From assembly GCF_030013205.1 (NCBI RefSeq), contig NZ_CP122648.1: 64,000 nucleotides of DNA; one strand, 5' to 3'. The DNA comes from Escherichia coli (GTDB lineage Bacteria; Pseudomonadota; Gammaproteobacteria; Enterobacterales; Enterobacteriaceae). The position numbers and the translations under genes are program-made. Of the stretch, positions 31,976-52,700 are shown piece after piece (position 1 is the stretch's first letter; every line of letters begins with the position of its first letter). Below the pieces are notes generated by a model that saw nothing but the letters and a program-made list of their open reading frames with translations, had not been told where the DNA came from and searched no databases.

Positions 31976-32063
31976 GGAAGTGTGGCCGAGCGGTTGAAGG
32001 CACCGGTCTTGAAAACCGGCGACCCGAAAGGGTTCCAGAGTTCGAATCTCTGCGCTTCCGCCA
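31976..32063 (+). tRNA. serT: tRNA-Ser (anticodon UGA)
   Basis: GGAAGTGTGGCCGAGCGGTTGAAGGCACCGGTCTTGAAAACCGG...CGCTTCCGCCA, long variable arm, CCA encoded; 3' half lies in prophage att core. Confidence 0.95.
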
Positions 32064-32071
32064 AATAATCA
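32004..32071. repeat. Prophage att core copy, serT 3' half (attL)
   Basis: 68-bp identical to 52435-52502. Confidence 0.85.
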
Positions 32072-32105
32072 AGGGGTTACCAAATGGTAACCCCTTTGCT
32101 TTTTG
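32072..32105 (+). terminator. Intrinsic terminator after serT, supplied by prophage-side DNA
   Basis: Stem AGGGGTTACC / GGTAACCCCT followed by T-run. Confidence 0.7.
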
Positions 32106-32107
32106 GG

Positions 32108-32140
32108 CTCTTGGTATAAACTTGGTATACCAATTGGTAT
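32108..32140. promoter_or_regulatory. Three direct repeats TTGGTATA, candidate integrase arm-type sites
   Basis: CTTGGTATAAACTTGGTATACCAATTGGTATA next to attL; the same octamer recurs near attR at about 52321. Confidence 0.4.
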
Positions 32141-32326
32141 ATTTTCTGCCAAAAAATTCCTAAAATCCCCTCCAGCACAAACAATCACTTGCTCATTCAT
32201 ACTTTATCAAGAAAATATCCTTGCAAGTTATGTTGTTTCTTTCTGCGTCCCGACAGGGTGTCATGGTTCCCCACTTCTCTCGGGATGGACACTTAACGGA
32301 CGAGAAATTTTCAGGTGTCATTCAGA

Positions 32327-48229: not shown

Positions 48230-48435
48230 CAATGAATACAGTATTTGCACTCGTTCTGACGGTTTTTCTTAATACAGGCGAGCCAGTCGATCTTGTTATT
48301 GGTATACATGACTCAATGAAAGAATGCATGGCTGCCGCAGCGGAACAGAAAATTCCCGGCAACTGTTATCCGGTTGATAAAGTTATTCGCATGGACAATA
48401 ACGAAATCCCGGCAGGACTTAAAACAGCACCGTAA
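48226..48435 (+). CDS. Hypothetical small protein with hydrophobic N-terminus
   Basis: MTMNTVFALVLTVFLNTGEPVDLVIG...; RBS AAGGA. Confidence 0.4.
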   Translation: MTMNTVFALVLTVFLNTGEPVDLVIGIHDSMKECMAAAAEQKIPGNCYPVDKVIRMDNNEIPAGLKTAP

Positions 48436-51053: not shown

Positions 51054-51305
51054 ATGTACGAATTAACTCTATCGCCAGCAGAGATTCAAGAGATCACGAA
51101 ATACGAGCGATACACAAAACAGCAACACCAGTTAAGGCTGCACGGTATCCCATTTGTAATCGGTCCTAAAAACGAACCAATAGTTCTTCGCAGGGATATT
51201 CCACACGGACTGACTACGATGCCAAAAGCACCTGAACTGGTTTCCGCTGAACCCGATTTTGAGGCGCTGAACAATGGGAAGACCAAGAAAAAACAAAAAA
51301 GATAA
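51054..51305 (+). CDS. Putative excisionase
   Basis: 83 aa ORF immediately upstream of and overlapping the integrase; call is positional. Confidence 0.45.
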   Translation: MYELTLSPAEIQEITKYERYTKQQHQLRLHGIPFVIGPKNEPIVLRRDIPHGLTTMPKAPELVSAEPDFEALNNGKTKKKQKR

Positions 51306-52293
51306 TGCACTACCACCGCGTGTTAGATCGAATGGTTACAGTTACGTATGGAAACCCGAAGGAAGCACAAGAACTATAGGGCTCGGAAGAGTGCGGGAAA
51401 CCAGCGTAGCTAAAGTCTGGCAAAATTATGAGCTGGAAAAAGCAAAACTCCACAACATAATGACAGTAGCTAAATTATGGCACATGTTTATGGACTCCCC
51501 TGCATTTACAGAACTGGCCCCCCGAACCCAAAAAGATTATCGGCAACATCAAAGGGCATTGTTGGCAGTATTCGGAAAAGTGCTTGCTGATAATGTAAAA
51601 ATTGAACAGGTAAGAATTTTCATGGATAAGCGAGGACTTGAGAGCAAGACCCAAGCAAACCATGAACTGGCAAGTCTGAGCCGTGTATACGGATGGGGAT
51701 ATGAGCGTGGGTATGTGAAAAATAATCCATGCAAAGGAGTCAGAAAATTCACACTTAAAGCCCGTACTGTTTACATCACCGATGAACAGTATGCTGCAAT
51801 ATATGCGGAAGCAATTCCACAGTTACGTATTGCAATGGAGATATCCTATCTTTGTGCGGCAAGGCTCGGTGATGTACTCGAGCTGAAATGGCAGGATATT
51901 ATGGAGAAAGGGATTTACATTGAGCAAAACAAGACCGGCACTAAACAAATCAAGGAATGGTCTCCGCGATTACGTACGGCGATCCAGTTAGCCCGAAATG
52001 TATCTTCCGGCACATGCGAGTATGTGATCAACACAACCAAAGGCGGGAAGGTAATAGCCAAGACGCTGAACAACTGGTGGAATCAGGCTAAACGTGCAGC
52101 CGAGCAAAAAGCCGGCGTTCCGTTTGGGTGCAACTTCCATGACATAAAAGCCAAAGGGATTTCACATTACGAAGGCAGCAGTCGCGACAAACAAATTTTC
52201 AGTGGACACAAAACAGAAAATCAGGTGTTGATTTACGATCGTAAAACCAAAATAACACCAACACTGGATTTGCCGCTTGTGGTCAGTAAGTAG
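51274..52293 (+). CDS. int: Phage tyrosine integrase
   Basis: 339 aa ORF 140 bp from the att core; C-terminal region with candidate catalytic residues (ARLGDVLELKWQDI; HDIKAKGISHYEG...LIYDR). Confidence 0.8.
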   Translation: MGRPRKNKKDNALPPRVRSNGYSYVWKPEGSTRTIGLGRVRETSVAKVWQNYELEKAKLHNIMTVAKLWHMFMDSPAFTELAPRTQKDYRQHQRALLAVFGKVLADNVKIEQVRIFMDKRGLESKTQANHELASLSRVYGWGYERGYVKNNPCKGVRKFTLKARTVYITDEQYAAIYAEAIPQLRIAMEISYLCAARLGDVLELKWQDIMEKGIYIEQNKTGTKQIKEWSPRLRTAIQLARNVSSGTCEYVINTTKGGKVIAKTLNNWWNQAKRAAEQKAGVPFGCNFHDIKAKGISHYEGSSRDKQIFSGHKTENQVLIYDRKTKITPTLDLPLVVSK

Positions 52294-52434
52294 GCAATAC
52301 AGAAAATTTTCTGGCAAAAAGACTTGGTATATTAACTCTGAATAACTCCCTAATATATTGATTTTTCTTGGTGTCAAGTCTGATTAACTTTTCGGATATT
52401 TTCCGTATTATACTGATTTTTCTTTATTTTTCTT

Positions 52435-52502
52435 CGGTCTTGAAAACCGGCGACCCGAAAGGGTTCCAGAGTTCGAATCTCTGCGCTTCCGCCAAATAAG
52501 AT
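52435..52502. repeat. Prophage att core copy (attR), partial serT 3' half
   Basis: 68-bp identical to 32004-32071, followed by a hairpin terminator AGGGGTTAG...CTAACCCCT + T-run. Confidence 0.85.
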
Positions 52503-52700
52503 AAGGGGTTAGCTAACTGCTAACCCCTTTTTCTTTTGCCTGTCGAAATTCTCAGGGCGTTATATTTGCTTAATGACCTGATAATCCGCTGTTAAACCTG
52601 TTCCAGATCAAATGCGTAAAGATGGGTAAAACTTCTGGGTGCCCTTACGCATTATCATTATGCTGCTTAATTAATTACATCTGTCATAGAGAGTGACTCA

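Follow-up and report, generated by a model that had tools for sequence, protein, structure and literature searches.

Introduction

The established point of reference for arm-type integrase sites is the attP of phage lambda, laid out as P1–H1–P2–H2–core–H'–P'1-3, in which the arm sites P1, P2 and P'1-P'3 and the IHF sites H1, H2 and H' have known orientations and map positions. Structures of lambda Int are available both for the N-terminal domain (PDB 1KJK/2WCC) and for the full-length protein (1Z1B/1Z1G/5J0N). Multiple Int arm-type sites plus accessory-factor sites are reportedly also present in two enterobacterial prophage systems, in the tRNA-targeting att of the KplE1 (CPS-53) IntS/TorI module at argW, and in the P22 attP at thrW, the latter said to have been treated by Smith-Mungo et al. 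in 1994 as a 'lambda motif'; both differ from the present system in integrase lineage, motif, target tRNA and directionality factor.

Two elements of the same lineage as the locus considered here have been isolated or studied directly. Prophage Sp4 of E. coli O157:H7 Sakai excises and circularises after mitomycin C, and the paper that reports its sequenced attP junction makes no mention of arm-type sites and regards the Sp4 excisionase as non-functional (PMC2669165). Evi is a coliphage isolated from infant faeces (PMC10910852). A search of the literature on Sp4/serT, ST64B and arm-type sites at tRNA anticodon loops yielded no description of the arm sites reported below, and a full-text search for the octamer itself returned irrelevant matches only; the sites of this lineage are apparently an undescribed member of a well-known kind.

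The 64,000-nucleotide stretch of Escherichia coli DNA analysed here (the window) carries, on the two sides of a serT prophage, four direct copies of the octamer TTGGTATA that are very probably the arm-type sites P1 and P'1-P'3 of a lambda-type (heterobivalent) integrase. Likeness to lambda attP extends to an integrase homologous over all three domains, one direct distal P-arm site, three direct P' sites 10-12 bp apart, and IHF-like sites between the arm sites and the core on both sides, and an inverted P2 is present in relatives of the window element. By contrast, the arm motif is C/AAGTCACTAT in lambda and TTGGTATA in the window, the 15-bp lambda core is replaced by the serT anticodon loop with a 65-bp identity block, the excisionase belongs to DUF4224 rather than being lambda Xis, the integrase is only ~21% identical to lambda Int, and the window lineage is without a recognisable P2. 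The P' sites also lie ~45 bp further out than in lambda (+99 to +130), displaced outward because the 3' half of the tRNA and a terminator hairpin intervene.

The serT prophage and its attachment blocks

The window is arranged as hyaA – serT – a 20.4-kb lambdoid prophage remnant – yccA. The remnant retains Q, RusA, DicB, a ParD/ParE pair, replication-gene fragments and broken tail genes, having lost the head genes and most of the tail genes, and its int–attR region is 100% identical to that of porcine and wild-boar O139:H1/ETEC strains. The features that delimit it are as follows.

31976-32063, + strand: serT, tRNA-Ser(UGA), the integration target (ARAGORN; serT is annotated at the same junction in O157 Sakai)
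32004-32068, + strand: 65-bp identity block at attL (direct repeat, 100% match to 52435-52499)
32071-32096, + strand: hairpin with an 11-bp stem and a following T run, brought by the phage as terminator of the reconstituted serT (terminator scan)
52435-52499, + strand: attR copy of the 65-bp identity block, a displaced serT 3' fragment (100% direct repeat)

The 3' part of serT, from position 29 on, is supplied by the prophage, and the 65-bp block begins at the second base of the serT anticodon stem, ending 5 bp beyond the tRNA. In correction of the earlier note on this DNA, that repeat is an identity block and not the core proper. Since the identity has its left boundary at tRNA position 29-30 in every related attP, crossover and overlap would probably be sited in the 7-nt anticodon loop (32008-32014), ~100-120 bp from the repeats.

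The phage sequence that follows the tRNA end (AATAATCAAGGGGTTA, 32065-32079) is an exact match to the IHF consensus, a property that its displaced chromosomal counterpart (AATAAGATAAGGGGTTA, 52497-52511) does not share; similar terminator hairpins follow both versions, so that the phage copy imitates the host terminator and brings in a putative bending site as well.

Position and statistics of the octamer copies

The octamer was first noticed as a triplet beside attL with a further copy inside attR near int, and all four copies proved to be exact and in direct orientation. They are numbered here from the centre of the anticodon loop, together with an additional inverted copy.

32111-32118, + strand: predicted arm-type site P'1, TTGGTATA, at +99
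32122-32129, + strand: predicted arm-type site P'2, TTGGTATA, at +110
32134-32141, + strand: predicted arm-type site P'3, TTGGTATA, at +122, the outer edge of attP
52324-52331, + strand: predicted arm-type site P1, TTGGTATA, at -119, in direct orientation with P'1-3
32126-32133, - strand: inverted exact copy of TTGGTATA overlapping P'2, arising from the palindrome TTGGTATACCAATTGGTATA

The start-to-start spacing of the three attL copies is 11 and 12 bp, approximately one helical turn, while the attR copy starts 31 bp after the int stop codon (52293) and 111 bp before the identity block. The description of the triplet as lying within 45 bp of the core holds for the start of the cluster, 43 bp past the 65-bp block, but not for its far end, the third copy ending 73 bp past the block; likewise the span originally given, 32108-32140, was correct as to place and off by 1-3 bp. 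No copy is present within the 65-bp identity block, the octamers being on both arms and away from the presumed crossover.

Six matches to TTGGTATA were recorded in the 64-kb window against 1.26 expected, a number reached in 0/100 shuffles. No other 8-mer in the window has three copies inside 40 bp that do not overlap, and a triple of that kind, formed by any 8-mer, was found in 0/200 dinucleotide shuffles. Two of the six copies had been overlooked in the earlier note, namely the inverted one at 32126-32133 (-), which is probably a by-product of the CCAA spacer and is not kept in three related elements (L004, L005 and L007), and one at 48299-48306, within a DUF1482-family gene upstream of the exonuclease gene, which was taken as chance because the expectation per window is 1.26 copies.

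AT-rich intergenic DNA readily gives rise to short tandem duplications, and slippage could give a spacing of 11-12 bp, so the triplet might be considered a neutral relic of local duplication with the attR copy a coincidence. That explanation is extremely improbable: the spacers aac and ccaa are unrelated, so that no tandem unit has been duplicated; composition predicts only 0.007 direct-strand copies in the 141-bp P arm; and the same plan recurs, with four other motifs at identical positions, in the attPs of integrases 42-60% identical.

Other short sequences close to the arm sites were also recorded. A 14-bp palindrome, CAGAAAATTTTCTG, lies just past the int stop codon at 52300-52313 and is extended to CCAGAAAATTTTCTGG in Evi. 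The run TTTCTGGCAAAAAGAC leading up to P1 is invariant in seven aligned P arms and differs in more diverged ones, and a similar sequence, TTTTCTGCCAAAAAA, follows P'3 (32142-32156) in the window only.

The integrase and excisionase genes

Two genes precede P1.

51054-51305, + strand: excisionase-like gene, DUF4224, 83 aa (Pfam PF13986; PHROG 1266 'excisionase', E=6.5e-23)
51274-52293, + strand: lambda-Int type tyrosine integrase, 339 aa, residues 1-60 being the predicted arm-binding domain

Comparison of the integrase with lambda Int (1Z1B) by phmmer gave a collinear alignment, 1-318 against 1-339, with E=1.3e-17 and with the N-terminal domain included. Residues 1-59 taken alone matched the lambda arm-binding domain 1KJK with E=0.009, the two having MGRxR…LPP…NGY…GLGR in common; a Pfam scan of the protein at E<=10 detected no arm-binding-domain model at the N-terminus. 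Conservation of the N-terminus in 17 homologues indicates that the 339-aa start is the true one; the product is annotated as shorter in the phage Evi record.

An AlphaFold2 model (mean pLDDT 80; ~85 over residues 11-50) placed strands at residues 17-19, 23-26 and 35-39, followed by a helix at 45-60, and the topology so modelled, a three-stranded sheet plus a helix, is that of the lambda N-domain. The best Foldseek matches were full-length lambda Int structures (1Z1B, 1Z1G, 5J0N), with E ~1e-16 over ~340 columns.

Intact attP and conservation among serT elements

The attP deduced from the two prophage ends exists as a contiguous sequence in phage Evi, the Int of which is 99% identical to that of the window at the protein level: downstream of the int stop come one copy on the P arm, then the 65-bp block, then the hairpin and a further three copies (1+3 TTGGTATA). 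Sp4 of O157:H7 Sakai, likewise at serT, has the same arms as the window element, and Sp4-type DNA is 88.7% identical to the window in the P arm and 97.6% identical in the P' arm, where the octamers are the same. Sp4 and Evi share both site and attP type with the window; they differ in their cargo, espV being located beyond P'3, and the window element is a 20.4-kb remnant. Within 5426 complete E. coli genomes, the P' arm was present in 748/5426, the P arm in 747/5426 and the int–attR region in 744/5426.

Prophages with different cargo match the window only as far as 32145, ~4-5 bp past the third copy, and thereafter continue into espV (Sp4, Evi), ykgJ (99RCEF, NCCP 13983) or other genes. Termination of homology among mosaic prophages just past P'3 is what would be expected of the outer edge of a functional attP. 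The location of the cluster, just past the phage-supplied serT terminator and before this variable cargo (espV, ykgJ, others), could alternatively suggest operators or sites for some other protein unrelated to recombination, serving cargo control or as a signal after the serT terminator. That possibility is rated as very slight, given that the repeats stay whatever cargo follows, that homology stops directly after them, and that neither a fixed-distance partner on the opposite arm nor covariation with the Int N-domain (see below) would be expected of a cargo regulator. A promoter reading was rejected because the scan predicted no sigma-70-like site across the repeats.

The repeats, whose absence from related elements with the same integrase had been named in advance as the outcome that would count against an arm-site reading, were found in every related element examined. 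Octamers are kept while spacers vary (aac/cac/gac; ccaa/ctaa/ctcag) in L004, L005, L007, L034 and 99RCEF. The P' arm of 99RCEF (Int 96.8% identical) reads TTAGTATA-cac-TTGGTATA-ctaa-TTGGTATA and that of a Salmonella contig TTGGTACA-gac-TTGGTATA-ctcag-TTGGTATA, P'1 being TTAGTATA or TTGGTACA in some serT elements. P'2 is unchanged in all intact serT-element P' arms read, a set that leaves out a decayed PPompW relic and the one-copy locus L054. On the other arm, P1 is an exact TTGGTATA in all those read except L054 (CTGGTATA); the longest invariant P-arm stretch is TTTCTGGC(A)AAAAAGACTTGGTATA, among seven sequences 88-100% identical. Conservation of P1 within E. coli says little alone because the whole P arm is 88-100% identical there; TTGGTATA is also kept at P1 in the more diverged L034 despite different flanks.

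Two degenerate arrangements were encountered. In locus L054 (IMGVR_UViG_2778261065_000020, 2517-2800) the P arm carries CTGGTATA and the P' arm is down to a single CTGGTATA, which looks like a deletion between repeats together with the same T-to-C change on both arms. A decayed copy of attP, consisting of a degenerate serT 3' half, the hairpin and TTGGTATA / TTGGTACA / cTGGTATC (compared with window 32004-32145), is present in PPompW prophages, Stx2a phages and many E. coli (L008, LC567818.1 37973-38116; L006), where it adjoins the type III effector genes espO, nleG and espM. It looks like a fossil att site inside the effector region of another prophage, and it explains why the P' arm query finds two places per genome in many genomes.

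The IMG/VR scan produced mostly near-identical prophage fragments ending at the int stop codon, informative loci amounting to 4/80 (L034, L054, L082 and L094). In L088, L090 and L091 (Int 72-78%) other genes follow directly after int, and no att was taken from them.

A common register of arm and IHF-like sites

For comparison over a greater evolutionary range, contiguous attPs were taken from the complete phage genomes of Chris1 (Int 59.5%), BUCT708 (53.7%), KpF5 and ST64B (50%) and mEp390 (42%), each being oriented by its tRNA fragment and numbered from the anticodon-loop centre. In eight attPs, with Int 42–99% identical, repeats occupy like distances, at about −119 on one side and about +100, +111 and +123 on the other. 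Copies in the window, Evi, Sp4-type elements and L034 are at -119, +99, +110 and +122. A direct P-arm copy is present at -119/-118 in 4/5 of the more distant relatives (Chris1, KpF5, ST64B, mEp390), BUCT708 having only a 6-of-8 match there, and direct P' copies are present at +100, +110/111 and +123/124 in Chris1, BUCT708, KpF5 and ST64B. The P' arm of mEp390 carries four copies located further out, from +126 to +157.

The octamer itself varies with lineage, being TTGGTATA in Chris1, TTAGAATA in BUCT708, TGAGAAAA in KpF5 and ST64B, and TTCGCCAT in mEp390, with TTGGAATA as the repeat at further attL junctions. ST64B, KpF5, Chris1 and mEp390 (Salmonella/Klebsiella/Citrobacter/Enterobacteria phages) resemble the window element in belonging to the Int/DUF4224 family (Int 42-60% identical), in having the excisionase gene before int (DUF4224 or DUF4224-like where checked, in BUCT708 and Chris1), in targeting a tRNA anticodon loop, and in bearing arm and IHF-like sites in the same register; Citrobacter phage Chris1 shares even the octamer, in which the other phages of this family differ (TGAGAAAA, TTCGCCAT, TTAGAATA).

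The window also contains three sequences resembling IHF sites at the positions between arm sites and core.

32067-32079, + strand: H'-like IHF consensus AATCAAGGGGTTA, exact match, carried on the phage arm at +55/+56
52351-52363, - strand: H1-like IHF consensus AATCAATATATTA, exact match, at -92
52406-52418, - strand: H2-like weak IHF site AATCAGTATAATA, 2 mismatches, at -37, weak evidence alone

The chromosomal flank at attR reads GATAAGGGGTTA in place of AATCAAGGGGTTA. The exact consensus WATCAANNNNTTR has 5 matches in 64 kb, 2/5 of them in the two att arms. Corresponding sites recur in register among the eight attPs, the H'-like site at +55/+56 with 0-2 mismatches in 7/8, the H1-like site at -92 with 0-2 mismatches in all eight (its consensus bases kept while the N positions vary), and the H2-like site at -37 with 1-2 mismatches in all eight; the background in shuffled controls with equal-size windows was 8.6% for <=2 mismatches and 0.8% for <=1 mismatch. 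To judge from the sequences, putative IHF sites would therefore flank the core on both sides, inside the arm sites.

Two incidental observations were made in the course of this comparison. A GTGTnAAA-like block at 52369-52377 occupies a fixed position (~-72 to -64) in attPs whatever their motif class, reading GGTGTCAAG in the window, CTGTGTTAAAA in BUCT708 and GTGTGTGAAAT in KpF5, and may be the target of the conserved DUF4224 excisionase or of another shared factor. The BUCT708 record (L097; OM816834.1, 'Stenotrophomonas phage vB_SmeS_BUCT708') combines an attP core that matches enterobacterial serT exactly with an Int/DUF4224 module of enterobacterial type, and its assignment to a Stenotrophomonas host may be wrong.

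Absence of a recognisable P2 and inversion of attP relative to int

An inverted arm site is present at -55/-54 in Chris1, BUCT708, KpF5, ST64B and mEp390. By comparison, a search of the P arms of the window, Evi, Sp4-type elements and L034 found nothing <=1 mismatch from TATACCAA, and in the window lineage the P arm varies most in the stretch from -55 to -40 (52388-52403). Two candidates for additional arm sites were rejected: TATACTGA (52410-52417), considered as P2, overlaps the H2-like site and is not conserved, reading TACACTGA, TGCACTGA and TGCATTGA in other lineages, and TTGGTGTC (52367-52374) is part of the GTGTnAAA block common to all motif classes.

Measured against the full five-site lambda layout, the window has the direct P1 and the three adjacent direct P' sites and lacks the inverted P2, so that in the absence of a site at -55 the arrangement is not a complete lambda pattern. 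P2 is required for excision in lambda. Excision of Sp4 without a recognisable P2 implies either that the excisive complex is organised differently or that P2 is too degenerate to see.

A second difference concerns gene order. In ST64B, KpF5, Chris1 and mEp390, int is located on the P' side of an attP with an inverted P2 at -55, whereas in the window it is located on the P side of an attP without one. More generally, int is on the P (one-repeat) side in the window lineage and on the P' (three-repeat) side in the other 12 lineages, some of which have 0.9-2 kb of cargo between int and the P' arm; the ~300-bp attP is thus inverted relative to int (window 51274-52499 compared with L094-L108).

Covariation of the octamer with the Int N-terminal domain

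Eight further Int homologues were located in genomes, all with the arrangement tRNA → P' repeats ← int. Three copies of TTGGTATA were found in Citrobacter (Int 78%), Lelliottia (76%) and K. aerogenes (64%), three of TTGGAATA in K. oxytoca (Int 76%), Salmonella (68%) and E. albertii (57%), and three of TTAGAATA in Salmonella (Int 73%). In a tree of the C-terminal 270 residues of Int from 13 lineages, the TTGGTATA, TTGGAATA and TTAGAATA classes are interleaved, all three occurring inside a clade at least 74% identical and again in a distant clade; switches of motif class have been repeated, and separate integrases with 75-85% identity elsewhere.

Base 5 of the octamer (T vs A) is split perfectly, in 13/13 lineages, by Int residues 18 (R/T vs Y), 30 and 33 only, and base 3 (G vs A) is split perfectly by residues 25 (V vs F/Y) and 34 (S/T vs C), as it is by five very variable columns outside the N-domain (110, 253, 256, 260 and 275). 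The AlphaFold2 model places residue 18 in strand 1, residue 25 in strand 2 and residue 34 just before strand 3. A blind prediction was made for a Sodalis Int (63% overall), which was expected to use TTGGTATA because its strands, RVRSNGYSYVFKP…KTIGLG, are nearly those of the window. It was borne out by an arm reading TTGGTATT-ga-cTTGGTATA-ttct-cTTGGTATA, that is, one TTGGTATT and two TTGGTATA. The sites consequently appear, from the sequences compared, to be conserved along with the integrase, the motif class seeming to follow its N-domain. As the sample is small and its 13 sequences are related, the covariation constitutes supporting evidence and not proof, and it could come partly from the int N-terminus and the att arms having been inherited together as a single module.

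These comparisons also bear on whether the octamers might instead bind the excisionase, a DUF4224 recombination directionality factor encoded directly upstream of int. Such factors, lambda Xis and TorI among them, commonly bind short direct repeats in att arms. Binding by the excisionase is nevertheless highly unlikely to account for the octamers, which occupy both arms in the P1/P'1-3 arrangement of lambda, at 100-120 bp from the crossover, and are not clustered on a single arm by the core. No column of the excisionase alignment splits by base 3 or base 5, in contrast to the Int N-domain residues with which the motif covaries, and near-identical excisionase N-terminal halves (window, P0013, P0020) go with three different motifs. 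This combination points to the N-domain of Int, rather than Xis, as the part that would read the octamer.

The proposal in the earlier note that the repeats are integrase arm-type sites is accordingly supported by every line of comparison, namely the lambda-like Int, the Evi attP, the presence of the repeats in related elements, the end of homology past P'3, the conserved register and the covariation with the N-domain. We go further only tentatively, and at slightly less than even likelihood, in suggesting a recognition code for the family, residue 18 being paired with base 5 and residues 25/34 with base 3, combined with a natural attP that works without P2 and is inverted relative to int.

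Proposed organisation of the recombining complexes

The excised attP would comprise ~300 bp in the order int stop–P1(-119)–H1(-92)–H2(-37)–core–serT 3' half–H'(+55)–hairpin–P'1/P'2/P'3, the core being the anticodon stem-loop, with P1 on the arm beside int and P'1-P'3 on the arm beside serT. The N-terminal beta-sheet domain of Int (residues ~1-60) would dock on the octamers, and the same protomers would bind the core at the anticodon stem through their C-terminal domains. Bends introduced by IHF at H1, H2 and H' would fold back the arms, enabling the bridged intasome to synapse with serT, and strand exchange would take place in the anticodon loop. In the prophage state, attL would hold P'1-3 and H', and attR would hold P1, H1 and H2, so that excision would need Int bridges between attL and attR plus the DUF4224 excisionase. 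The remnant may still be excisable, since the window retains int, xis and the two arms in intact form.

Significance

General understanding of site-specific recombination is left unchanged by these results; a specialist might take up the register common to the family, the covariation between residues and bases, and the lack of a P2. If the N-domain residues identified above do set specificity, arm-site specificity would be predictable from sequence and re-programmable, and the natural TTGGTATA, TTGGAATA and TTAGAATA variants offer direct tests of specificity coding by the Int N-domain.

For the elements themselves, the predicted sites would define the functional attP as ~300 bp extending from the int stop codon to 4 bp past P'3. 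The resultant map of arm, IHF and core sites could serve in the design of integration vectors for serT and serU. It applies to a prophage family that occupies serT in ~14% of complete E. coli genomes and includes O157:H7 Sp4 and effector-carrying relatives, for which it would help to predict which remnants, such as the 20-kb one described here, may still be excised.
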